A stretch of DNA of 64,000 nt from an uncultured Gammaproteobacteria bacterium (GTDB taxonomy: Bacteria; Patescibacteriota; Patescibacteriia; UBA9934), in the NCBI GenBank assembly GCA_964582615.1, contig CAZORP010000005.1, positions 11,994 through 75,993 on the forward strand, written 5' to 3'. How positions within the stretch are numbered: the stretch's first letter is position 1; each line of letters starts with the position of its first letter. The position numbers and the translations under genes were made by a program. Positions 2,529-25,853 of this stretch are shown one piece after another. The notes beneath the pieces are model-generated. The model was not told the origin of the DNA. It did no database searches and worked only from the letters and a program-made list of their open reading frames with translations.

Positions 2529-2828
2529 ATGAGCGATGGTGCAAAACCTAATATCATTCTCACTTCAAGCTTTAATTCCGTCACCCAAGAGCTTTGGGAA
2601 AAATCCCTCTTACCAAAAACGGCATCGGTTGCTTTTATTCCAACGGCTGGTGATCCGTATCCGGAACGGCCCTGGATCGACGCGGATCGAAAAGCTCTTG
2701 TTGGGCTAGGCTATAACGTCACAGACATCGGTCTCAAGGGCGTGACAATCGAAAAGAATCTGCTTAGAACCCCAGCCTCCATCCGAATCTTCGGGTGGAT
2801 ACTATCAATAAACACATTTCGTTCCTAA
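2529..2828 (+). pseudogene. Peptidase E (S51)-like N-terminal remnant, truncated after ~100 codons
   Basis: NIILTSSF...VAFIPTAGDPYPERPWIDADRKALVGLGYNV matches the peptidase E N-terminus. The reading frame then degenerates (IFGWILSINTF where IFVGGGNTF is expected) and stops. It directly abuts the nucleotidyltransferase cassette. Confidence 0.4.
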
Positions 2829-2854
2829 GATAACGATGCGTTCCTAAGAATTCT

Positions 2855-3502
2855 ATGAACCTAGAAGAAAATATTCTCCAGCACTTACTCGAGAAATACA
2901 ATCCATGGTTTATTTTTCTCCACGGATCACGAGCTGTTCATAAAAATCGCCAAGATAGTGATTGGGATATCTACGTCTTCACAAAAGACACCACAAAAAC
3001 AGGCAGTGCCACCGAAGTATTTGAGGGTTACGAACTTGATGTAAGCTTGCAAGTTTTTCCGTTTGAAATTACTAAAGAGACTCTTGTTGCTACATTTGGA
3101 CCAACATTACAAACCGCGGAGATTCTTTTTGACAAAAACGGTGACGGTAAAGATTTTCTCAATAAAGCCCAATTACTTTACGCAGAGGGTAGAAAACTTT
3201 CAGACCGCGAGATTGAGGATCGCAAGAGACGTTTCGCTAGAGTTCTGCTGAGATTAAAGGGGAGCATTCATGATGACTATGAATTCTTCTATCATATGAC
3301 AAGTTTTTATCCGTCCATTATTAGATGGTGGTTTGAACTTAGAGGTGAGTGGTCAAAGCCGATTTACCTTGCAATGAGAGAAATAATGAGTAGAGATGAG
3401 GAATACTATAATCATCTAAGCGCCATCGTAAGGTACGGCGACAACCATAACAAAGTAGTCGCACTTGAAAAAATTTACAAAAAACTCTTCAGCACTCACT
3501 GA
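2855..3502 (+). CDS. Minimal nucleotidyltransferase (Pol-beta superfamily, MNT/ANT-like) with a C-terminal helical domain
   Basis: hG[GS]...DxD signature HGSRAVHKNRQDSDWDIYVF; 215 aa. Confidence 0.75.
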   Translation: MNLEENILQHLLEKYNPWFIFLHGSRAVHKNRQDSDWDIYVFTKDTTKTGSATEVFEGYELDVSLQVFPFEITKETLVATFGPTLQTAEILFDKNGDGKDFLNKAQLLYAEGRKLSDREIEDRKRRFARVLLRLKGSIHDDYEFFYHMTSFYPSIIRWWFELRGEWSKPIYLAMREIMSRDEEYYNHLSAIVRYGDNHNKVVALEKIYKKLFSTH

Positions 3503-3567
3503 TTCTTGCTAGAACTCCCCGCTTAGTCCTCCAGCTATAGAGCTAGACTTATATCACGTAATTACGT

Positions 3568-4299
3568 ATGTCGGAACAAAAAAAGGATCGCTGGTGGATC
3601 GGTGCCCGAAGTCTTCACGATAATGTACGAAAGGTCGGTCTACACTACGAGGATATCGCTGGCAAGGAAAAATATGAATATTTTTTAGAAAACCAACAAT
3701 TTACTCTTACACCCTTTCCACGATCGTCCGCTCCTGCAAATACCGATTCTCTACTTACACCCAACTGGAAGTTGCTTGAATCTCGCTACACCGCCACGCT
3801 TTCCTCCTATTTACACCCCGCCGCGTCGGAGAAGGTAGATTTTATTAAAGGCCCCAACGAGGCGTATAAGCTACACCTCAACATTCCTATCGATCACGTG
3901 CGCGAAGCTTCGAATTATTTAAAGAAAGAGAATTACTACCACAAGTATCTATCAGGTGGAGATGATCCTGGATCAATTTTTACGCTTTACATCGGATCGC
4001 ATCATCTAGCATTTAGTCTTGCGGAAAAACTCAGCACGGAACTTGCAGATTTTCTTGCAAAACCCGAAAGAGCAGATGAGATAGAGTTTGCAGCTAATGT
4101 CGTAGGAAGATTTAGTACAGCAAAAGATGGTCGATATACCAAATACGGTGGCGGCCTTCGGGGAATGTCGTGCCTTACGGAATTTAATTGGTCCTTCTGG
4201 ATTACCAATGCCAGCGATCGGAAGGAATATCTTCAAAAAGCCTTCAAGGCGACCTACGCAAGTCTGGCAAAAGACTACGGTTCGTACTTCCATGGATAA
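3568..4299 (+). CDS. Hypothetical protein (243 aa) between the NTase and the HEPN-like gene
   Basis: Long ORF on the same strand with ATG start and compact spacing; no recognisable domain. Confidence 0.5.
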   Translation: MSEQKKDRWWIGARSLHDNVRKVGLHYEDIAGKEKYEYFLENQQFTLTPFPRSSAPANTDSLLTPNWKLLESRYTATLSSYLHPAASEKVDFIKGPNEAYKLHLNIPIDHVREASNYLKKENYYHKYLSGGDDPGSIFTLYIGSHHLAFSLAEKLSTELADFLAKPERADEIEFAANVVGRFSTAKDGRYTKYGGGLRGMSCLTEFNWSFWITNASDRKEYLQKAFKATYASLAKDYGSYFHG

Positions 4300-4470
4300 T
4301 GAGCACTTAGCATCAGAAAATCTCACAGCATCGCTTGAGAGCATAAAAGCTCACAGCAACATCGTTACCGGAAAAGTATTTCCTTCCCGTTGTTCACAAT
4401 TCCACTTCCGTGAACCTTAGAAATCGAAGGGGTGGTCTAAGGATATATTTGATTACTATAAACTTGCTAC

Positions 4471-4980
4471 GTGGACCGTGATAAAAATTTATCGACACCT
4501 TTGAGCGTTATGAGTACAAAAATCATCGATCTTGAGTATCCTTGGAAATATAACGATGGCCGTAATTGGCCTTACAACGGCATGGTAAATGATCTTTGGC
4601 GAGGAATTCAGGCCGATCAAAACTACCTCGTAGCTCTCGGTCTTTTTGCTTATTCAGAAATGCTTGGCCGTGAACTTCGAGGAACTGTGGGGAACCGAAA
4701 TATAGGTAAAGGTTTTGAAGCCTATAAAGAATTCACGGAAAACTTTGTCGGTTATGCATTTGAGGAATCTTTATTAAAAGATATTTTCGATAGGTATCGA
4801 AATGGGCTTGCTCATGAATATTTCATAAAATCCCAAAACGGAATGAGCGCTATTATTTATAATGATGATGGAAACAGGTCCTGTGGCATTGTTCTCAGCA
4901 AAGGAACGGCCGAGCTCTATATCCATACCTATTTCAAACACTTCGTCGCTGGACTCGAAAAAATGCTCAACAAATACTAG
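4471..4980 (+). CDS. Hypothetical protein with an Rx4HxY (HepT/HEPN-like) motif; GTG start at 4471 or ATG at 4510
   Basis: Motif RNGLAHEY (R-x4-H-x-Y) near the C-terminal third. It follows the NTase gene on the same strand. Confidence 0.5.
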   Translation: MDRDKNLSTPLSVMSTKIIDLEYPWKYNDGRNWPYNGMVNDLWRGIQADQNYLVALGLFAYSEMLGRELRGTVGNRNIGKGFEAYKEFTENFVGYAFEESLLKDIFDRYRNGLAHEYFIKSQNGMSAIIYNDDGNRSCGIVLSKGTAELYIHTYFKHFVAGLEKMLNKY

Positions 4981-5056: not shown

Positions 5057-5488
5057 ATGCCAACCATCAATCCCTGGATTAACTTCAACGGCAATGCCGA
5101 AGAAGCTTTTACGTTTTATCAATCAATCTTCGGAGGAGAATTCAAAAAGATCATACGTTTTAAAGATCTTGCAAGTGAAGACTTCCCTATTCCTCAAGAA
5201 GAATCAGAAAAAGTCATGCTTATCGCTCTATCTGTTGGCGAGCACCATACGCTCATGGGAAATGACGTGCCCTCTTTCATGGGAACCGTTAGCGAGCAAG
5301 AGCACCGAAGCAAGATCGCTCTTAGCGCAGACTCTAAGGAGGAAGCTGACGCAATCTTTCAAGGTCTTTCCGTGGGAGGTCACATAGAAGGCGCTATGAG
5401 CGAAGGTCCTTGGGGTTCTTACGCGGGAATGTTACGCGATAAATTTGGTATTGAGTGGATTATTGAATACTACCCCACTACACCGTAA
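5057..5488 (+). CDS. VOC/glyoxalase-family protein (PhnB-like)
   Basis: N-terminal INFNGNAEEAFTFYQSIFGG and 143 aa length are typical of the PhnB/VOC family. A hairpin terminator lies at 5511-5548. Confidence 0.75.
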   Translation: MPTINPWINFNGNAEEAFTFYQSIFGGEFKKIIRFKDLASEDFPIPQEESEKVMLIALSVGEHHTLMGNDVPSFMGTVSEQEHRSKIALSADSKEEADAIFQGLSVGGHIEGAMSEGPWGSYAGMLRDKFGIEWIIEYYPTTP

Positions 5489-5609
5489 TTTTCTACACAA
5501 AACCCTATACAAAAATAGCTATCCATCAAGGATAGTTGTTTTTTTACTGAACTTAAGAAAATCCTAAAACACTACCTCCCTCTGGGCATTTGCCGAGAAT
5601 ATTGCTACG

Positions 5610-5948
5610 ATGACCGGTATGTCGCATCAAGAACCGCGCAAAGAAAGCTATACCTTTACCGCCTCGCTATGGAAATACCAAGGACACGCTTCGTGGTATT
5701 TTTTTACCGTTTCCCAAGAGGTCTCACAGCGCATTCGAGAACACCATCATCAACACGCCCGAGGCTGGGGATCTCTCCCTGTTGCCGTATCTCTTGGAAC
5801 TAGCTCATGGGAAACATCGCTTTTTCCCGAAGGAAAAAGCAAGTGCTATCTCCTCCCCGTAAAAGCGGCAATTCGCAAAGCGGAAAACCTCAGCGTTCAA
5901 GAGCCTCGCAATATAACACTTCACGTTCTTCATACACCCTCGCGCTAA
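5610..5948 (+). CDS. DUF1905-like small protein
   Basis: ~110 aa; the WKYQGHASWYFFTVSQEV pattern resembles DUF1905. Confidence 0.35.
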   Translation: MTGMSHQEPRKESYTFTASLWKYQGHASWYFFTVSQEVSQRIREHHHQHARGWGSLPVAVSLGTSSWETSLFPEGKSKCYLLPVKAAIRKAENLSVQEPRNITLHVLHTPSR

Positions 5949-7694: not shown

Positions 7695-9446
7695 ATGACT
7701 CCTCTCCAAGAAAACACCAAGGTTCAACAAAAGACCATGAGCTCTCTGAGAAAATTCCTACCCTTTCTTTCTCAAGAACGAGGAAATCTTCTCTCTTCAA
7801 GTATAGCCATCGTCCTCGCTTCGGGACTCAATCTTCTCGCGCCAATACTTATTGCGCACACTATAGATACAACCTTTGGAACTGGAAATTTCTCCTCAAT
7901 TCTTTTCATGGGTTTTTGGATTTTCCTAGTGTATCTTGGAGCATTTTTTGCAAGCTATATACAAACCATGATCATGGGTGGCGTTGCACAGCGCATTCTC
8001 TTTCGCTTGCGAGAACGCATTTTTAACCACCTTCAGGAGCTTCCTCTTGCGTTTTTTCACGAACAGAAAACGGGAGATATCATCTCACGCATTAACGCAG
8101 ATACCGACAAGCTCAATCAGTTCTTCTCGCAAGGCATCATGCAGTTTGTAGGTAATGCCTTCATGATTCTTGGATCTGCACTTTTCATGCTTGGCCTACA
8201 ACGTCAACTTGGAGGGGCTGCACTTCTTCCCGCGGCCGGCATCATGGTGATAACACTTTTCATGGGAAGCATCACCCGCAAGAAAAATAAGGAAAATCTT
8301 GCATCGATAGGAAGTCTCAGCGGAACCATTCAAGAACAATTTGCAAACTTCAGCGTCATCGCAGTCTTTCACCGAAGAGACTATCTCCGCGAAACCTTCA
8401 AGCGCGCAACGCAAGCTACCTACAAGTCCGCCATTTCCGCAGGCATGGTAACAACCTTCATGACACCGCTTTATACCCTTGCGGGAAATCTTGCCATGCT
8501 CATTATTCTTAGCTATGGAACCTTACTCATTGCACGAGGAAATTTAACGCTTGGTATTCTTGTAAGTTTTCTCACCTATGCCAATCGCTTCTACGATCCT
8601 CTCAAACAGATCGCTGCAACGTGGTCATCCTTTCAACTTGCACTTGCCGCATGGGATCGCATTCGTGACATTCTTGAATATACAGCGCCATCACCAAAGA
8701 CTCTTCATGCGTCACCTCGTGCACCCGAAGAATTACTAGTATTCTCAGATGTCTCCTTTGGATATACGCCGGAAAAAGAAGTTCTTCATCACGTAAATAT
8801 CACGCTTGAATCCGGAAAAACCTATGCGCTTGTTGGACCAACTGGAGGAGGAAAAACTACCCTAGCGTCACTCATGGCGAAGCTTTTTGAGCCAACACAG
8901 GGATCCGTGCTCTTTTTAGGAAAAGATCTTCGTGAATACACCGACAACGAACGGGCACATCGCATTGGATTCATCTTGCAAGAACCTTTTCTTTTCACGG
9001 GAACCGTTCATGAAAACCTCATCTACGGAAATGAAGAGCTTCACAATATTTCAGAGCAAGATCTTGAACACATCCTCGAGGAACAACATCTCAAAGATCT
9101 TCTTCGCCGATTCAGCGAAGGGCTTTCAACACGAGTGACCTCAGAAGGATCATCGCTAAGTCTTGGACAGCGCCAGCTCCTTGCCTTCATGCGTGCCGTA
9201 TTGCGCAAACCCGACCTGCTCATTCTTGATGAAGCAACCGCAAATATCGACACTGTCACCGAACAACTCCTTCAAGAAACCCTCGAAAAACTTCCAAAAA
9301 CTACCACAAAGGTCATCATCGCACACCGTCTTCATACGATAAAAAATGCTGATGAAATCTTTTTCATTAACCAAGGATCCGTGGTACAGGCAGGATCATT
9401 TGACCACGCTGTAGACCTTCTCATGCATGGAAAACGAACGAGTTAA
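7695..9446 (+). CDS. ABC exporter permease/ATPase subunit carrying the consensus nucleotide-binding site
   Basis: Walker A GPTGGGKT; Walker B LLILDEAT; H-loop AHRLHTI; signature degenerate LSLGQRQ. Lies 4 bp after the partner gene. Confidence 0.9.
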   Translation: MTPLQENTKVQQKTMSSLRKFLPFLSQERGNLLSSSIAIVLASGLNLLAPILIAHTIDTTFGTGNFSSILFMGFWIFLVYLGAFFASYIQTMIMGGVAQRILFRLRERIFNHLQELPLAFFHEQKTGDIISRINADTDKLNQFFSQGIMQFVGNAFMILGSALFMLGLQRQLGGAALLPAAGIMVITLFMGSITRKKNKENLASIGSLSGTIQEQFANFSVIAVFHRRDYLRETFKRATQATYKSAISAGMVTTFMTPLYTLAGNLAMLIILSYGTLLIARGNLTLGILVSFLTYANRFYDPLKQIAATWSSFQLALAAWDRIRDILEYTAPSPKTLHASPRAPEELLVFSDVSFGYTPEKEVLHHVNITLESGKTYALVGPTGGGKTTLASLMAKLFEPTQGSVLFLGKDLREYTDNERAHRIGFILQEPFLFTGTVHENLIYGNEELHNISEQDLEHILEEQHLKDLLRRFSEGLSTRVTSEGSSLSLGQRQLLAFMRAVLRKPDLLILDEATANIDTVTEQLLQETLEKLPKTTTKVIIAHRLHTIKNADEIFFINQGSVVQAGSFDHAVDLLMHGKRTS

Positions 9447-9516
9447 TAACCATCGAAAAGTTCCATCTTTTATTCATCTGCTACACTTTCTGAAAAAAAC
9501 TCTGAGATTCTTTTTT

Positions 9517-11572: not shown

Positions 11573-12002
11573 GCTCTTGTTCCAACTGGCGACCTTCTTC
11601 AATCAACGAAGCAAGATTCGTGCGCGCATTTTCCATGAGTACAACATCCTGCGATGAAGCCTTTTGAAGCTCCCCCTGTAAGCGAAGAAGCTCCCCCTGC
11701 AACACGTTGCATGCATTTTGCAAAAGTCCCTCATGAATTCCGCGATACCCACGCAAATGCTGGAGTTCTTTTCCAGAAGACCAACCTTGACCGCCCATAA
11801 AAGACCCACTCGCCCGACGAAGCAAACGCTGAAGTCGAAGAATGTACTCACGCGCTGTTTCGACATTCCAAGATCCGTTATACACCAAATCTCCCCCATC
11901 TAAAGGATTCTGCGCTCGGAGTATGTCATTCATCTGGGAAAGTGCCGCGCGATCACGTTCTGGATCTCTGAAAAATTTTTTCATTTGCTCAAAAATTCTC
12001 AT
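11559..12002 (-). CDS. Hypothetical protein (147 aa)
   Basis: ATG-initiated ORF convergent with phr; no recognised domain. Confidence 0.4.
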   Translation of the reverse strand: MRIFEQMKKFFRDPERDRAALSQMNDILRAQNPLDGGDLVYNGSWNVETAREYILRLQRLLRRASGSFMGGQGWSSGKELQHLRGYRGIHEGLLQNACNVLQGELLRLQGELQKASSQDVVLMENARTNLASLIEEGRQLEQELNRF

Positions 12003-17762: not shown

Positions 17763-17884
17763 ATCACTAAGTATACTTGAGTGCTTGTTTCACAGAAAAA
17801 ATTATACACATATTTTTTTTCAAAAAATGCTTTTTTAAAAAAGAAAACCAACTTAATTCGTGCTATTATAGAAAAAATTTTGCT

Positions 17885-20800
17885 ATGCATTTTTTCAAAA
17901 AATTTCTCTCACTTTTTAGCCTTATAACCCTTGGTATTTTAGCGGTACTTCACCCGACTATAACTCACGCCGATCCCGATACTACTCCCCCATCATTTGT
18001 ATCCGCCTATATTACCGGCGACCATAGCGTCACCATTACCTATTCAGAAACGCTTTGGTGGAATTTTTCTGATGCATATGCGAACTTTACCGGAGATTTT
18101 GCAGGAAAAAACATCATCGCACAGAGTGAAAATTCCTCAAGCAATCATATTGTCCTTATTTTTGACGGTCCTGTTTTTGAAAGCAACTTCTCGGGAACAC
18201 TCGATATTCTCGCGGGAGAAGTTCAGGACTTTTCAGGAAATGCCTTTGGTGGGCTTTCCGGTGTACTCATTACCCGCCAACCACAAGCAACACAAGTAAT
18301 CTGGAATGATGTCGACGCTTCAAGAGATTTTTCCGGAACCGATACCCTCACGGTGCAGTTCAGTACTGTCATGAACGAATCTTCAATTACCACAGAAAAC
18401 ATTGATAGCCGCCTCGGTCTTTCCGCGGGAACATTTGGAACTTCCGCCGCGGGACTTAGCCTCTCATGGGACCTCATGGGAGATCCCTCCTTCTCAACAC
18501 TCACCATTACTCTTGGCAGTGATACAACCATCGTTCACGGAGCAACCATCAATCCAAGCTCAAGCGTTACCAATAGCTCAGGAGCTCCGGACGCAACACC
18601 ATCAAACCTTATCCTCAGTACCGATTATTACTTTGCAGAATTTTGGAATCTTCCCGCGGAGTCCGATGAATCTCCAGCTTTTCCCACGGGAGAGCCGGAT
18701 TATCAATCAAATAGTGAGGAAATTAATTTCATGTGGAGTGAGGAATCTCCAAATCCCGCCATTAACACCGACGATTTTGCGGCTCGTTTTACAAGAACCA
18801 CAACACTTACCAACAATCATTACACCTTTTCCTTCAGCGAACTTGATGACGGAGTCAAACTTTATATTGATGATGAACTCATCTTTTCTTCATGGGTCGA
18901 TCAGGGATCCGCAAGTTATAACGTAGAAGCTCGAATAACACCAGGAGAACACACCATCGTTCTGGAATATTATGAAAACGGTGGAGGTGCAGGTATTATC
19001 TTTAGCATGTCAGGTGACACGCTCGCGGACACTGTGTATGTTGATTCCACATATGCAAGCGAACTTGCCAACGATGGTCACACCTGGGGTTACGACGCAT
19101 TTTCAAATATTTTTAGCGCCATTAGCGCGACTGCGGGAAATGGAACCGTACACATCGGTGATGCAGAGTGGGCAACTTCTGACAGCATCAATCTCACCTT
19201 CCCTATTACCATAGATGGCGAAGGTGCAGGCATAACTCGAATAAAAAACGTTTCCTGTACAACGGTATTTAACATTCAATCAAGCAACGTTACCATTCAA
19301 GATCTTACCGCAGGAAGTTACGACGGTTTTGGATCGGATCTCTGCACAAGTAGTGACGTTATTTACGCGGTTGGAACGTCCACGACACCAATTAGTTCAA
19401 TTTCACTTTCCCATGTAGACCTCCACGGTGGAGATGGAGGAGTTTATTTTGGCGAATATATTTCAGACGCTACCGTTACCGGAAGTACAGTATCGGAAGC
19501 ATATACAGGAATTTACCTTGCCAGCTCAACTGATGTTACAATCTCGGGATCGACACTTGAAAACAATACCGCGGAAGCAATCTTCTTTACCCTTGGATCC
19601 TGCGAGGAATGCAGTCTCATGCCACCGTCAATGATCACTATTGACGACAACCTCATTCAAGGAAATCTTGGCGCGGGAATTACCCTAGAAACCGGCGACA
19701 CCATTACCATTTCTTCAAATACCATCTCCGATAACGGATGGGATTGGTGGGATATCTCAGGCGGTATCGTTGTACGAGGAGAGTGGGGGGAAACGCGCAG
19801 TCTTACTATTTCAGGAAATACCCTCTCTCAAAATTCAGCTCACGGTATCTACATTCATCAACCAACTGACCTTGAAGCAGATGCTCCAACACTAAGCGAC
19901 AACATCATCGTTCGAACAGGCATGAATGATGCCGACGAAACATATCCTGCAACGGCAGGTGTAACAATTCTTGCTTCAAGCGTTACCTGTGAGGGAAATT
20001 CTATTGGAGAAAATTCAGGATCGGGTATCGTCCTTGGAAGTATCGATGTTTACCCAGAAAATGTTACGATCAGTACCAATATCCTTGGATCTTTTACGCT
20101 TCCCGATACAACTTCCTACGGAGGAAATACCGCGAATGGTCTCACCGTCGTCCACTTCGCCGGCACCGCAAATAGCATTCACCAAAACATTATTAGAGAT
20201 AATGCATTACTCGCCGCAGAAAATAGCAATGGCTCTGAGATTGACTTAACACTCAACTACTGGGGACATTTTACGGGACCATTTCATTCTTCGGAGCACA
20301 TGACTGGTCGAGGCGATACCATTGGTAACGATATTCTTTTTACACCCTACAATGAAGGACCGGAAACCCTCACGCTTAACGATCCTCTTGTAAGTTTCTT
20401 TAGCGCCCCTGAAGATGCCTCAGAAATCACCGACGCTACGCTTGGCGTAGTACTTGAAACCAGCGCATCTCGAGATCAGCACGCAGCTTTCGTTTCTCGC
20501 AACGATGACCTTTTAGCCTTCTGGAGATTTGAGAACATGGGACCAAATGAGGGATCTTTAAGCATCCCTATGAACGTTGGCGGAGCAGACCCCTATCTTT
20601 ATCAAGGACATTACGGAAGCTCAGCAAAATTCGATGGTGTGAGTGCACTTTTCGCAAATGAAAGCATCCTTTCATCACGTCCAGAGTTTACCCTTGCAGG
20701 ATGGGTTTACATCGACGAAGACGTGCTCTCAGGTCAACGACGCGGATTCTTCGGTGAGAATAATGCCTTTGAAGTTGGTTTTGACACCGATCACCTCACC

Positions 20801-21355
20801 ATTTATACCGACCTTGTAGGAAATGTTAGTTGGGAGGTAACTCCAGAAAATTTCCCTGTTCGCACATGGCATCACATTGCCGCAGTTTTTGAACCTTCCG
20901 GAACAAATCCCCTTACGCTTTATGTTGATGGCGTAGCTGTTGCCGAAGGTGGCAGTTCTGGACCCTATGTCACGGAAGGATTCTACGAATCCCCTCTTGC
21001 GCTTGGCGGTGCGTCATTGACGCTTCCTGTGGGGACGATGCGCTTGTTGGAAGACTTGATGATGTATTTCTCTTCAATCGAGCACTGCAAAGCGACGAAG
21101 TCCTCTCCCTTATGGACGCAGGAGAAAATCCCTACACGAATCTTACCTACCCACTTGATGACGGTGAGTACACTATTCAAGGTTTCGTTATTGATGGCGG
21201 TGGCGACATGGAATCAACCTCGTCGCGGTCATTCTTTGCAACATACACCCCTCCTGTATACAGCCTCTACGTTGACGATGACTACACGCCCGAAGGAGAA
21301 AATGATGGTCATGTTTGGGGAGAAACAGCATTCGCGGATCTTGATAGCGCGCTAG
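17885..21355 (+). CDS. Giant secreted surface protein B, 5' part: signal peptide, PA14 domain, parallel beta-helix (PbH1) repeats and a LamG/ConA-like domain. The frame breaks by -1 near 21017; the last ~110 codons of this ORF are out of frame.
   Basis: Signal peptide MHFFKKFLSLFSLITLGILAVLHPTITHA. PA14-like DDGVKLYIDDELIFSSW...YYENGGGAGIIF. PbH1 repeats (NTISDNGWDWWDISGGIVV, NTLSQNSAHGIYIH). LamG core TLAGWVYIDED...TLYVDGVAV. Confidence 0.75.
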   Translation: MHFFKKFLSLFSLITLGILAVLHPTITHADPDTTPPSFVSAYITGDHSVTITYSETLWWNFSDAYANFTGDFAGKNIIAQSENSSSNHIVLIFDGPVFESNFSGTLDILAGEVQDFSGNAFGGLSGVLITRQPQATQVIWNDVDASRDFSGTDTLTVQFSTVMNESSITTENIDSRLGLSAGTFGTSAAGLSLSWDLMGDPSFSTLTITLGSDTTIVHGATINPSSSVTNSSGAPDATPSNLILSTDYYFAEFWNLPAESDESPAFPTGEPDYQSNSEEINFMWSEESPNPAINTDDFAARFTRTTTLTNNHYTFSFSELDDGVKLYIDDELIFSSWVDQGSASYNVEARITPGEHTIVLEYYENGGGAGIIFSMSGDTLADTVYVDSTYASELANDGHTWGYDAFSNIFSAISATAGNGTVHIGDAEWATSDSINLTFPITIDGEGAGITRIKNVSCTTVFNIQSSNVTIQDLTAGSYDGFGSDLCTSSDVIYAVGTSTTPISSISLSHVDLHGGDGGVYFGEYISDATVTGSTVSEAYTGIYLASSTDVTISGSTLENNTAEAIFFTLGSCEECSLMPPSMITIDDNLIQGNLGAGITLETGDTITISSNTISDNGWDWWDISGGIVVRGEWGETRSLTISGNTLSQNSAHGIYIHQPTDLEADAPTLSDNIIVRTGMNDADETYPATAGVTILASSVTCEGNSIGENSGSGIVLGSIDVYPENVTISTNILGSFTLPDTTSYGGNTANGLTVVHFAGTANSIHQNIIRDNALLAAENSNGSEIDLTLNYWGHFTGPFHSSEHMTGRGDTIGNDILFTPYNEGPETLTLNDPLVSFFSAPEDASEITDATLGVVLETSASRDQHAAFVSRNDDLLAFWRFENMGPNEGSLSIPMNVGGADPYLYQGHYGSSAKFDGVSALFANESILSSRPEFTLAGWVYIDEDVLSGQRRGFFGENNAFEVGFDTDHLTIYTDLVGNVSWEVTPENFPVRTWHHIAAVFEPSGTNPLTLYVDGVAVAEGGSSGPYVTEGFYESPLALGGASLTLPVGTMRLLEDLMMYFSSIEHCKATKSSPLWTQEKIPTRILPTHLMTVSTLFKVSLLMAVATWNQPRRGHSLQHTPLLYTASTLTMTTRPKEKMMVMFGEKQHSRILIAR

Positions 21356-24300
21356 AAATCGCAACGCCAAACTCAACGATCACCATGGCATCGGGCTATT
21401 ACGAAACTGTTCTTGGTTACGATATCACTCTCGAAGGACTCACCATCGAAGGCCCTGAAGACATGAGTGCACGTATCGTAAATCCGCTCTGCGGGGATGT
21501 TTTTAACATCTACGCACCATCGGTCACCATCACCCACCTCACCCTCGAAGAACGCGATGGCGATGGAGCGATCTGTGAAGAAAATGAGGTCATAAGCCTA
21601 TGGCATGATCCTGAAAGCATATGGGACGCTTCGTCTGCCGAAATAAGTTACAACGTCATCACGGGAGGTTATCGAGGAGTATATCTCTCAGGACACATGG
21701 AGGACGTAACTATTACATCAAACACCATCTCTGAAAGTACATATGGCATTCGATCTTACGGTGGAAAACGAACAGTTATCGACGATAATACTATTATAGA
21801 AAATTTTATTGGTATTCGTTTTGATGACCATGACTGTAGCGAGGAAGGCTGTGAAAGTTATCCCGAAGACGTCATCATTCAATTCAACAACATCAGCTAT
21901 AACGACGAAGACGGTCTTAATCTTGACGAAGGAAAACGAACCATCGTTTCGGGCAATGCCTTCTTCGAAAATGGTCATGATTCTGAATTTGGAGGAGGAA
22001 TCTACATATCCGACATCGGACTTGATGGAACAGAAATTGATACAAATACGTTCATCAACAACGTATCTTACGGTATCTACATCTCTGCTGAGGAAACCAG
22101 CGCGGAAAGCCCTATATCTATCACGAATAACACCATTCTTCAAGACACCGTAGGTGAGGATACTCGCGGAATTGATGTAAATGGAGACTATATTTCCATC
22201 ACCGAAAATAGTATCGCCGGCTACGCTGAAGGAATTCGCGCCTGCAGTGACTATCTCAATACTGCAACCATTTCCGAAAATACCCTCGGAGCCATCACTA
22301 TCGAAGATACAAGTTTCCCCGGAAACACCATCGGACTAGGCATGTACTGCGGAGACACTGTCACCGTTGAGCGTAATACCTTTTCAGGAAACGAAGTCGG
22401 TCTTCATAACTTTTCAACAGAAACCGTGACCGCTCAATACAACTACTGGGGTGCGGCATCAGGACCAACAAACCTCACCAACCCCGAGGGATCCGGAGAT
22501 CAGCTCAATGAAAACGACGGCATCTTCACTAATCCTTATACTTACGGAGAAGAAGATGGAACGTATCATTTCCTTGTAACACTTTCCGCTCCCAACAACA
22601 ACGTCATCTACCGTCCCTTCTTTAGCGATGAAGAAATGACTACGGAAGTCACCGGAGAAAACATCCCCTTCACGTTAACTCGAGCAGGCGTTAGCTTTGG
22701 AGAGTCCTCCGTTGAAGAGTCCACCTTAGCGCAAGAGGACAGCGAAGGTCTCCTCTTTGGAGAATATACCTTCACAAGCGACAGCCCACTTTCCTGTGGA
22801 AGATCTTATCTTTACCGCTACGATGCAACGCTTAACGATGAGGTATTCCTTTCAACAACGGAAACCTTTATCGCCGATGCGTGTACCGATAACGAAGGAC
22901 CTGAAATCGTTACTATTTCAGCAGAAGCAGAAGAGACGACCGCGACGCTCTCCTTTGAAACCAATGAACGATCGTCGTACCTTCCTCGAATTGGCACACA
23001 CCTCGATCTTCTTGAAGAACTCTTCCTTGAGGACGATGCATTTACTACAGCAGAACATACTGCAGAATTTGATGAACTTACCCCCTGTACGAAGTACTAC
23101 GTCACTCTTGAACTCTCTGACAGTCTTGGAAATGTCTCAACAGATACCGTGGCAGAATTTACCACGCAAGGATGTCCCGGAAATGCAGAAATGGTGAATA
23201 TTGGAACGGAAATTTTTGACCCCGAAGAAAGCGAATTGTTTGGACTTTCCGCCGAAGATTTCTCAGCCAGCATTTTCGCAGATGAAGACTTCTTCATTCT
23301 TCCCACCGCCTTCCAAATGTCACTCTTTATTGCCGATGAAGTTTTTGACGGTATGGGCGATCCCGCAAGAACAACACTCGCAAGCTCACACCTTGCCCAA
23401 GTGAATGCTTTCGTTTTTGGAACCAATCTTGTAGAAACCCTAAGTGAACCCATTTCCGTCAGTGTAAACTACGACGCCGAACTCGTTCCCGAAGAAGATC
23501 TTGAAAAACTCTTCATCTACAGCTATCGCAACCATCACTGGAGTAAACTCTCTGACTGCACCACGGACACCGAGGAATATCGCATTACATGTACTACCGA
23601 CGAGCCCGGGCTCTTTGGAGCTTTTATCCAGGAAGATCGTCGATCGTCATCATCAGCACCAGCAACGCCTCCTCGCGTCGTTTCGGAAACCCCAGAAGGA
23701 ACCGTGCCAACCTGCACCCTACCTCGAAAAACCACCTCACTCAACATCCCCTTCTCTTGTACCGCAACGGGAAGCTCAACACGTTCCATGAGCTTTACCG
23801 AAACCTACCAAGGAAAAACATCCTTATCCTCTGGTCGCTACACTTCCAAAGATACCCTTCTTCTTCGCGAAGGCGCCGGAGAACACACCATTGTCATCAC
23901 ACTTACATCACAGACGGGAGAAATCCTCACCCTACCCACGTTTACCGTCACGGTAGAAGATGCCCACGGACAGATCTCAACATCATCTCAATCCCCCATC
24001 CACCGCGATGACGCAACATCTTCCTACGACACCTCTCGTCAACGATTTGTTGCAGAAGATTCTGGAGAAGTAGATAGCTCAGGTCGAGCATTGTCACGTG
24101 TTGCTTCAGGATGGTTTGTTCGCAGTGAACAGTTCTCAACGGTGTACTACATTGATAGCTCTTATGTACGTCATCCACTTTGGGATACACAAACGTTCTT
24201 TACATGGGCAGATTCATGGGATGACATTACCTGGGTTACCGATGCTACCCTTGCAACCATGCCCCTTGGAAAGCCAGTGCTTCCTAAGTCTGGAGTGGTG

Positions 24301-24552
24301 CTTGTGAAACTTGAGAGTGATCCTTCGGTATATGCGGTAGATGAAGATACTTCAGGAAACAGTATCCTTCGCCGCGTTCCTTCCGAAGAAGATGCTCGTG
24401 CACTCTTTGGATCTTCTTGGCAGTCGTACGTCATTGATATTCCTCCTACGATCTTCCCTCACTTTGGTAAGGGATCTCCCCTGACCAAGGATGAGGCATG
24501 GGATGCGGGAGGGATGCTCTCTCGCGCACAGATTTCCGCCGCATCGTTATAG
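20930..24552 (+). CDS. Giant surface protein B, 3' part: completes the LamG domain (..GRLDDVFLFNRALQSDEVLSLMDAGENP), then more PbH1 repeats with NYWG..SGP motifs, Ig/Fn3-like domains and the shared C-terminal domain. The frame is open from ~20930; the first ATG is at 21112.
   Basis: The canonical LamG terminal motif lies in the +2 frame immediately after the break. Beta-helix repeats follow (NTISESTYGIRSYGG, NNISYNDEDGLNLDEG). Confidence 0.75.
23989..24516 (+). repeat. 528-bp perfect direct repeat, copy 2 (3' module of giant gene B)
   Basis: Identical to 15309-15836. Confidence 0.95.
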
Positions 24553-24587: not shown

Positions 24588-25853
24588 ATGCGCCAACGCG
24601 AAGCACTTGCACTCATGTGTGCGGGAAATAATATTTTTCTCACAGGAGAACCGGGATCGGGGAAAAGTCACACCCTACGAACGTTCTGCGCATTTCTTCG
24701 CGCAGAGCATCGCAATTTTGCGGTAACCGCAAGCACCGGAATTGCCGCAACGCACATCGGAGGAACCACCATTCACGCGTGGAGCGGCATTGGTATCGCA
24801 AAACATCTCACCAAAAAAGCCTGCAAAGACCGAGGAAAAATCAATGGCTGTGCAAAGCGTATCGCAAATACTGAAGTCCTTATTATCGACGAAGTTTCCA
24901 TGCTTGATGCACAAGTTCTCGATACCGTGGATCTCATGTGTCGCGTACATCGCACCGCAGATCTCCCCTTCGGAGGTATGCAGGTTGTTTTTGTTGGAGA
25001 TTTCTTTCAACTCCCTCCTGTCGCACGTCACGATGAACCTCCTGCAAAATTCGCATTTCAAAGCGATGCATGGCAATCTCTCGACCTGCAGATTTGTTAT
25101 CTTGATGAACAGCACCGACAAGAAGACCCTCTTTTTCTTGAACTTCTTCGCGATATCCGCAAAGGGTCACCCACCGCAAAGCATCTCGAAACATTACAAA
25201 CTCGCATTCGAAAAACCGCACCAGAACATACAAAGCTTTTCTGCACCAATCTTGATGTCGACACCATGAACGCAGAGCATCTTTCCCGCATCAAAGAACC
25301 CCTCAAGGCTTTCACCATGACTACATTTGGAAATCCAAAAGCGATTGAGCAATTACAACGAGGATGCCTATCCCCCGAACGCCTTGAGCTGAAAAAGGGA
25401 GCTCGCGTCATGGTGACGAAAAATCTTCCCAGCAAACGATTGGTTAACGGAAGTATTGGTATTGTGGAAGATTTCGCAAAAGAAACTCACCTACCTCTTG
25501 TGCGATTTCCTTCCGGATCTCTTGTAAGCTTTGAACCCGAGGTTTGGAGCTTTGAAGGAACCAAAGAGGAACAAGCGAGCATTCGCCAAATTCCTCTTCG
25601 ACTTGCGTGGGCTATTACCATTCACAAGAGTCAAGGCATGTCACTCTCCGAAGCGTATATCGATCTTGAGAAGACGTTTACCTACGGCCAAGGCTACGTT
25701 GCTCTTTCTCGCGTGCGCACGCTGGCAGGCATTACACTTAAGGGAATTTCACCAAGAGCTCTCGAGGTGCATCCGGATATTCTTGTTTTCGACAATCACC
25801 TTCGCACCGCATCAAAAACCCTTGTGCCACAAAGAAAGAAGACGCTTTTTTGA
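24588..25853 (+). CDS. PIF1/RecD-like superfamily-1 DNA helicase
   Basis: Walker A FLTGEPGSGKSH; motif II LIIDEVSMLD; VVFVGDFFQLPPV. Confidence 0.8.
   Translation: MRQREALALMCAGNNIFLTGEPGSGKSHTLRTFCAFLRAEHRNFAVTASTGIAATHIGGTTIHAWSGIGIAKHLTKKACKDRGKINGCAKRIANTEVLIIDEVSMLDAQVLDTVDLMCRVHRTADLPFGGMQVVFVGDFFQLPPVARHDEPPAKFAFQSDAWQSLDLQICYLDEQHRQEDPLFLELLRDIRKGSPTAKHLETLQTRIRKTAPEHTKLFCTNLDVDTMNAEHLSRIKEPLKAFTMTTFGNPKAIEQLQRGCLSPERLELKKGARVMVTKNLPSKRLVNGSIGIVEDFAKETHLPLVRFPSGSLVSFEPEVWSFEGTKEEQASIRQIPLRLAWAITIHKSQGMSLSEAYIDLEKTFTYGQGYVALSRVRTLAGITLKGISPRALEVHPDILVFDNHLRTASKTLVPQRKKTLF

Follow-up and report, generated by a model that had tools for sequence, protein, structure and literature searches.

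Three co-directional genes beside an S51 peptidase remnant in an uncultured bacterium are probably independent accessory genes

The locus described here lies near the start of a 64,000-nucleotide (nt) stretch of DNA (the window) from an uncultured Gammaproteobacteria bacterium (GTDB lineage Patescibacteriota, UBA9934), which corresponds to positions 11,994–75,993 of the forward strand of contig CAZORP010000005.1 in assembly GCA_964582615.1. All coordinates given below are those of the window. Three genes follow one another on the + strand and encode a two-domain nucleotidyltransferase (NTase) of 215 residues (2855–3502), a protein of 243 residues with a core that resembles the phosphothreonine lyases (3568–4299), and a protein with the motif RNGLAHEY (4510–4980, 156 residues from an ATG). 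They are preceded on the same strand by a 99-codon remnant of an S51 peptidase gene (2529–2828). A preliminary description of this DNA had combined the three genes into a toxin–antitoxin (TA) or abortive-infection (Abi) module consisting of an NTase, a protein of no assigned function and a HepT-type toxin. The gene contexts of homologues point to a different reading, namely that these are probably three functionally independent, lineage-specific accessory genes that are neighbours by chance beside a dead peptidase remnant.

The three genes do not overlap, with 65 nt between the NTase gene and the gene for the 243-residue protein, and 210 nt between the latter and the RNGLAHEY open reading frame (ORF). 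All ORFs of at least 200 residues between 2855 and 15863 are on the + strand. The co-directional run also holds an MFS transporter, a VOC/glyoxalase protein of the bleomycin-resistance type, a DUF1905 protein and two ABC exporters.

The independence of the three genes is best seen in the surroundings of their relatives. For the 156-residue family, nine independent loci were examined. These came from a Portnoybacteria/Patescibacteria-group metagenome-assembled genome (MAG; L003/L015), Bacteroidia, a variant related to that of Bacteroidia (L008), Falkowbacteria, a gammaproteobacterial MAG, Saccharibacteria, a Pseudomonadota MAG in which the gene lies beside an IS3 element, and two metagenome contigs. 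None of the nine contexts contains a neighbouring gene of the NTase or the 243-residue family, and no neighbour of any kind is conserved among them. The 243-residue family was examined in five contexts with differing neighbours, including a 741-residue ATPase with AAA_15 and SMC_N domains, RelA/SpoT (two genes), RRF, RuvC and a 73-residue ORF; no kinase, cyclase, precursor peptide or type III secretion gene is present in these five contexts. The relatives of the NTase were surveyed in about 40 loci, comprising 37 metagenome loci, a short Logan contig (L019) and one plasmid. The plasmid locus was judged by annotation only, and the survey was made without the contig of the close homologue P0043. 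A hidden Markov model (HMM) search of the 37 metagenome loci and L019 detected no member of the 156-residue or 243-residue family beside an NTase relative.

When all ORFs of the loci available as DNA were searched with HMMs of the three families (plasmid loci excepted), no locus outside the lineage of the window was found to contain two of them. Both exceptions belong to that lineage and are short assemblies, of which one (L001) keeps all three genes and the other (L002) keeps two. Two further relatives, P0032 (243-residue family, 53% identity) and P0020 (156-residue family, 58% identity), come from sibling assemblies, where they are located on different contigs in unrelated contexts. In the same metagenome scan, short MNT-like relatives of the NTase (approximately 110–150 residues) do show an adjacent HEPN gene; therefore, the scan would have caught a partner of the NTase if there were one. 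Since the three families never co-occur elsewhere, we do not regard the locus as a new three-gene TA system. The preliminary description had listed a lack of co-occurrence in other genomes among the observations that would refute its module, and no co-occurrence was seen in the 9, 5 and approximately 40 loci of the 156-residue, 243-residue and NTase families, respectively.

Several of these contexts have features of their own. In loci L024–L056, each of the short MNT-like NTases is followed by a member of one of two HEPN-type partner families, with the motifs NRLYY...R[QH]KGDY or YRYPSP. These pairs served as a positive control for the canonical MNT-HEPN arrangement. On a 390-kb metagenome contig (L009, 3768–6732; also L010), the gene of the 243-residue family begins 8 nt after the gene for the 741-residue AAA_15/AAA_23/SMC_N ATPase; this pair could be a two-gene unit of the defence-system type and is absent from the other four contexts. 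In a Bacteroidia locus (L006), two genes for 142-residue lipoprotein-like proteins that are 92% identical to each other (5391–5819 and 9060–9488) bracket the gene of the 156-residue family together with a gene for a Fic-domain protein, an arrangement that suggests a duplicated, variable region. An S51 peptidase gene, here intact, is located 3 kb upstream in the same locus, probably by coincidence.

The NTase contains a GSx10DxD motif (GSRAVHKNRQDSDWD, nt 2924–2968, residues 24–38), and a minimal NTase of this length with a GS..DxD motif, as first described, is indeed encoded here. The protein matches the Pfam family Polbeta (PF18765) with an E-value (E) of 2.8e-8. Its score on the NCBIfam equivalog MntA_antitoxin is 27.5 bits, compared to a cut-off of 60, and this match extends across only 34 residues. 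The family alignment (A6) contains proteins of 203–228 residues, in which a C-terminal part of approximately 115 residues, helical in appearance, is conserved together with the catalytic core. A search of the PDB with the family profile identified the MNT antitoxin of Aphanizomenon as the best match (7ae2_B, E 6e-7), followed by ANT(4') (4ebj, E 0.0015), HalB (E 0.006), KNTase and ANT(3'')(9). All of these alignments are confined to the catalytic core, with approximately 45 residues aligned for ANT(4'), KNTase and ANT(3'')(9) (E 0.0015–1). No ANT family, ANT C-terminal domain or resistance model in Pfam or NCBIfam is matched by the NTase. The full-length, two-domain relatives are solo genes that adjoin HD hydrolases, SDR or nitroreductase genes, and the relative on a plasmid of Clostridium tagluense is a solo gene beside GNAT acetyltransferases. 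The possibility that an Rx5H sequence of the C-terminal domain (R133...H139) forms a HEPN motif within the NTase was rejected, as the closest homologues do not conserve its histidine.

The NTase shares the GSx10DxD motif with the antitoxins of the type VII MntA-HepT systems (Shewanella SO_3165/3166, PDB codes 5yep and 7bxo; Aphanizomenon MNT/HEPN, PDB codes 7ae2 and 7ae8), which are also its best matches in the PDB. However, MntA is a single domain of approximately 100–150 residues, whereas the NTase of the window is 215 residues long, carries a further conserved domain at its C-terminus and does not reach the cut-off for MntA. The antibiotic NTases ANT(4')/KNTase, ANT(3'')(9) and Lnu, as well as HalB, resemble it in having a Pol-beta-type core followed by a helical C-terminal domain, in size (approximately 200–270 residues) and in being encoded by solo genes, but only the catalytic core can be aligned with them and none of the resistance models is matched. 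We conclude that the 215-residue protein is a self-contained, two-domain NTase of the Pol-beta type with an MNT/ANT-like core and a helical C-terminal domain. The contexts make a small-molecule substrate plausible.

The second gene was present as described (3568–4299, +), and its product has no profile match in Pfam, NCBIfam or PADLOC. Searches of the PDB with the sequence and with a family profile also returned nothing for the family. A HMMER search with the family profile identified at least 489 representative clusters (clustered at 50% identity) at E≤1e-3, of which 151 are at E≤1e-30. Most members have 200–290 residues; in addition, the domain is embedded in a dozen proteins of 807–7844 residues, sometimes in two or three copies. 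These giant carriers are P0045, P0071, P0073, P0076, P0081, P0087, P0112, P0118, P0120, P0127, P0144 and P0157, and the repeated copies are found in P0045 and P0076. A Pfam scan of eight of the giant proteins revealed essentially no other domain, and no kinase or cyclase domain. Such an architecture recalls that of multi-effector or polymorphic-toxin proteins.

The alignment of 105 members of the family contains five invariant residues (K101, K126, T139, P166 and F182) and six others conserved in at least 90% of the sequences (H103, N105, H125, Y141, E173 and R181), with the consensus GWKxHLN ... HKYLSGG ... GKIFTxYIGS ... EIEFAPGVVGRF. In the window, K101-x-H103 is encoded at nt 3868–3876, K126 at nt 3943–3945, Y141 at nt 3988–3990 and R181 at nt 4108–4110. 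A Pfam scan of the 105 members returned RamC_N (PF25816) in 39 of them at E≤1, all below threshold, while the next commonest family was found in six. RamC_N represents the lyase domain at the N-terminus of class III lanthipeptide synthetases. The best single-domain E-value for RamC_N among the 105 members is 0.0014, and the multi-copy member P0045 reaches 26.1 bits (E 6.7e-6), compared to a gathering cut-off of 27. The family was also compared by hhalign with SpvC (encoded on pSLT), OspF (encoded on a plasmid of Shigella) and a distant homologue from Microbulbifer. The resulting alignment to SpvC/OspF (P 0.002, probability 13.8%, 67 columns) pairs K101-x-H103 with K104-x-H106 of SpvC, K126 with K134, which is two residues away from K136, and T139-x-Y141 with T156-x-Y158. 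The catalytic residues of SpvC are K104, H106, K136 and Y158, and the N-terminal domain of LanL/RamC is homologous to OspF (PMC2843593, PMC4159009).

The structure predicted by AlphaFold2 (AF2) for the 243-residue protein is poor (pLDDT 53.7) and was obtained from a shallow alignment of 12 sequences. A Foldseek search of the PDB with this model placed ThurKC at rank 13 (E 0.34); its generic ferredoxin-like and PII matches are attributed to the poor quality of the model. The catalytic residues of this family agree in kind and in order with those of the phosphothreonine lyases (OspF/SpvC/HopAI1, Pfam VRP3) and of the N-terminal lyase domain of class III/IV lanthipeptide synthetases (RamC_N, PF25816), whereas the loops between these residues are seven residues shorter in the 243-residue family. 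In contrast to the class III and IV lanthipeptide synthetases, the domain is found alone or in giant proteins and has no kinase or cyclase joined to it. Judging from these sequence comparisons, the family is likely a remote homologue of the phosphothreonine-lyase fold. Whether the protein also acts by β-elimination, as its conserved catalytic residues would suggest, we regard as about an even chance. A wider proposal is made only tentatively and seems somewhat doubtful to us: that the gene represents a large, unnamed eliminylase family, related to OspF/SpvC and to the lyase domain of lanthipeptide synthetases and occurring in uncultivated bacteria outside lanthipeptide and type III secretion contexts, here beside a new solo HEPN-like family.

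The third gene had been taken to encode a protein of 169 residues from a GTG (4471–4980). The ORF and its motif are present, but all 29 homologues (36–60% identity), as well as the public gene call, begin at the ATG at 4510, and the GTG start adds 13 residues that are found in no homologue. Therefore, the true product probably has 156 residues, and the residue numbers used here count from this ATG. The motif RNGLAHEY is encoded at nt 4798–4821, with its R-N-G-x-x-H part at nt 4798–4815. R97, G99, H102 and K107 are invariant in the family (29/29) and N98 is present in all members but one (28/29). With a mean column identity of approximately 50% in the family alignment, the invariance of R97, G99 and H102 indicates that the motif is more than a chance occurrence. 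The residue two positions after the histidine is the tyrosine that is AMPylated in HepT of the Shewanella system. At this position (Tyr104 in the protein of the window), 16 of the 29 members have phenylalanine and 13 have tyrosine. The assignment as a HepT-type Rx4HxY protein thus holds for Rx4H, a genuine family signature, but not for the tyrosine, and no member of the family matches a Pfam or NCBIfam profile, including those for HEPN, DUF86 and HepT. PADLOC and PHROG gave no match for any member of this family or for the 243-residue protein, searches of the PDB by sequence and profile gave nothing for the 156-residue family, and a scan of IMG/VR found no member of either family.

The AF2 model of the 156-residue protein is confident (pLDDT 90.4, pTM 0.88) and mainly helical, with helices at residues 22–34, 38–57, 68–80, 86–97 and 138–155. 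A three-stranded sheet (residues 113–137) is located between the motif and the last helix. A Foldseek search of the PDB with this model returned nothing significant (best E 0.86, TM 0.36–0.40). Of the top 33 PDB matches, all non-significant, 14 are HEPN proteins (TM about 0.3–0.4), and these derive from five proteins: Csx1-Crn2, AbiV, the chains of the Shewanella HepT complex, the HEPN toxin of Aphanizomenon and YutE. The HEPN fold that the preliminary description expected for this protein is reflected in its best, weak PDB matches, all of which are HEPN proteins, but in no significant one. Over all searches, the model has its nearest structural neighbours in BFVD, where the two best matches (E 5.5e-4, TM 0.53, and E 0.03, TM 0.59) are phage proteins that are uncharacterised, namely A0A0H4TI24 and A0A3G2KI42 (Arthrobacter phage Nandita), followed by several SprT-like proteins at E>1. 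A zincin signature, suggested by the HE of AHEY and by the SprT-like matches, was rejected because a second histidine is lacking and only 17 of the 29 members have E103.

Several properties of the family are shared with HEPN RNases that are solo or loosely linked to other genes (AbiV, the HEPN domains of Csx1/Csm6, and YutE/DUF86), including the R-N-x-x-[AS]-H motif, a mainly helical structure and a length of approximately 150 residues. The general Rx4–6H pattern of HEPN proteins, with a polar residue after the arginine, is likewise present. The family differs from these RNases in having the three-stranded sheet in its model and no significant sequence or fold match to them. Compared to HepT, it shares R-x4-H-x-Y in the protein of the window and has HepT/HEPN chains among its best, non-significant fold matches, but it matches neither the HepT nor the DUF86 profiles and does not conserve the tyrosine. 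Moreover, the mntA and hepT genes are adjacent or overlapping and their pairing is conserved, whereas here the 243-residue gene and the two gaps intervene and the pairing recurs in no other genome examined. An hhalign comparison of the family with the two HEPN families that partner MNT-like NTases in the metagenome loci revealed no relation. Given the enrichment of HEPN proteins among the weak fold matches and the R-N-x-x-[AS]-H motif, HEPN is our best guess for this protein. The family is plausibly a divergent, HEPN-like one, the fold assignment from the model being weakly supported. We do not regard the 156-residue protein as a HepT toxin that the adjacent NTase neutralises.

The ORF at 2529–2828 had been described as an S51 (peptidase E) gene that is truncated after about 100 codons, and this proved correct. 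Its Pfam match is below threshold (E 0.02, 15 bits, compared to a cut-off of 23.9), but a pairwise BLASTP comparison with an S51 protein of Enterococcus gave 31% identity over 87 residues of the N-terminal half (E 3e-8). The Enterococcus protein is an unambiguous S51 member, with 173.6 bits on PF03575 (E 5.6e-51). The remnant covers residues ~2–88 of an enzyme of approximately 210–230 residues and has a degenerate GG-NTF motif (FGWILSINTF) just before its end. Nothing of the catalytic half at the C-terminus, which contains the Ser, His and Glu residues, is present in the window, where tblastn recovers residues 2–88 only; a full-length S51 domain with a Ser-His-Glu triad is thus not encoded by this ORF. 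The ORF is a dead 5' remnant of an S51 peptidase gene and not a functional member of the family.

The preliminary description further suggested that the three genes had landed as a cassette in an eroding locus. The GC content of the locus is 0.39–0.47, similar to that of the flanks, and the GC profile of the window shows no compositional island around the three genes. No flanking repeats were found around them, and there is no second S51 half on their far side or elsewhere in the window. The suggestion is not borne out by these results, and insertion of a mobile element was rejected on the same grounds (no flanking repeats, no GC shift and no split S51 gene). Promoter and terminator matches around the genes are no more frequent than expected from shuffled sequence.

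How the three genes are to be understood together depends on whether their similarities to paired systems outweigh the behaviour of their families. A lineage-specific, type VII-like TA or Abi module, in which the NTase would AMPylate the HEPN-like RNase at Y104 and the 243-residue protein would be an accessory, seems quite improbable. It would account for the GSx10DxD NTase with MNT antitoxins as its best PDB matches, the spacing of R97, H102 and Y104 in RNGLAHEY, the prevalence of HEPN proteins among the weak fold matches of the 156-residue model, and the common direction of the genes and their retention in the same-lineage assemblies L001 (three genes) and L002 (two). However, no other locus of the three families shows them together, Tyr104 is replaced by phenylalanine in 16 of 29 members, and the two-domain NTase falls far under the MntA cut-off and has solo full-length relatives. 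In addition, with 65 and 210 nt between them the genes lack the tight coupling seen in TA pairs, and neither the 243-residue nor the 156-residue protein is matched by PADLOC. The same solo relatives, which adjoin GNATs, nitroreductase and HD hydrolases, would agree with an ordinary small-molecule NTase of the antibiotic (ANT/Lnu-like) type among resistance or detoxification genes, beside which the remaining two proteins would be unrelated, hypothetical ones with neither HEPN nor lyase activity. The two-domain size of 203–228 residues, comparable to that of ANT(4')/KNTase and HalB, the matches to 4ebj (E 0.0015) and HalB (E 0.006), and the MFS transporter, VOC/bleomycin-resistance-type protein and ABC exporters of the window are in line with this possibility. 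We nevertheless consider it unlikely, as the ANT matches span only the core of approximately 45 residues with no ANT C-terminal or resistance-model match, and the invariant RNGxxH and the K-x-H/K/Y signature argue that the other two proteins are enzymes and not inert. Finally, in a new two-step dehydration of proteins or peptides, by analogy with phosphorylation and elimination in LanKC/LanL, the NTase might AMPylate Ser/Thr residues of a target, from which the lyase-like protein would eliminate adenosine monophosphate (AMP) to give dehydroalanine or dehydrobutyrine. The NTase gene does lie directly beside a gene with a lyase catalytic signature, and the activate-then-eliminate logic is established for LanL (PMC2843593), but the two families are never neighbours elsewhere, no precursor-peptide-like ORF or cyclase was seen and the pathway is pure inference, so that we give it hardly any credence.

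The reading as three independent accessory genes is thus preferred. Under it, the NTase would adenylylate or nucleotidylylate a small molecule or other substrate alone; the 243-residue protein would act on modified Ser/Thr, with phosphate or a different leaving group being lost by β-elimination; and the 156-residue protein, with a divergent HEPN-type fold, might cut RNA through a dimeric R/H site suggested by its motif. Several points weigh against this reading. The contexts are few and most of the close homologues are on contigs of 1–2 kb, so that a module restricted to close relatives could be missed. By sequence, the catalytic motif of the NTase is closest to that of the MNT antitoxins, and R97/H102/Y104 in the window's own 156-residue protein has the exact R-x4-H-x-Y spacing of HepT. 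The lyase assignment rests on sub-threshold profile matches (26.1 compared to 27 bits; 13.8%) and a poor model, and the fold-level evidence for HEPN in the 156-residue protein is non-significant throughout.

Other parts of the window contain genes that are separate from these three. A 184-residue ORF (1644–2198) that separates the MFS transporter gene from the S51 remnant, a candidate gene, has only weak matches to DUF4440/SnoaL-like and S6PP_C domains (E ~0.01). Two very large ORFs (1192 and 1146 residues, 17777–24552) contain beta-helix/NosD, PA14 and LamG-like domains. They overlap by approximately 240 nt in different frames and could be a frameshift-split gene or two adjacent surface proteins. 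A PIF1-like helicase gene (24588–25853; Pfam PIF1, E 2e-36) is located beside these giant beta-helix genes.

As a variant of TA systems the locus is without importance, since the proposed three-gene system fails in co-occurrence. Its value lies in the provisional annotation of two families that have no match at or above the curated cut-offs in Pfam, NCBIfam, PADLOC or PHROG. Should the 243-residue family be active, 'eliminylation', an irreversible modification of phospho-proteins or peptides, would reach far past the type III effectors of pathogens and the lanthipeptide synthetases and take in the giant multi-domain proteins found in uncultivated bacteria. For the 156-residue family, whose compact solo genes encode an invariant RNGxxH and occur in other phyla as well as in Patescibacteria, a role as a HEPN-type RNase that has no partner is possible.

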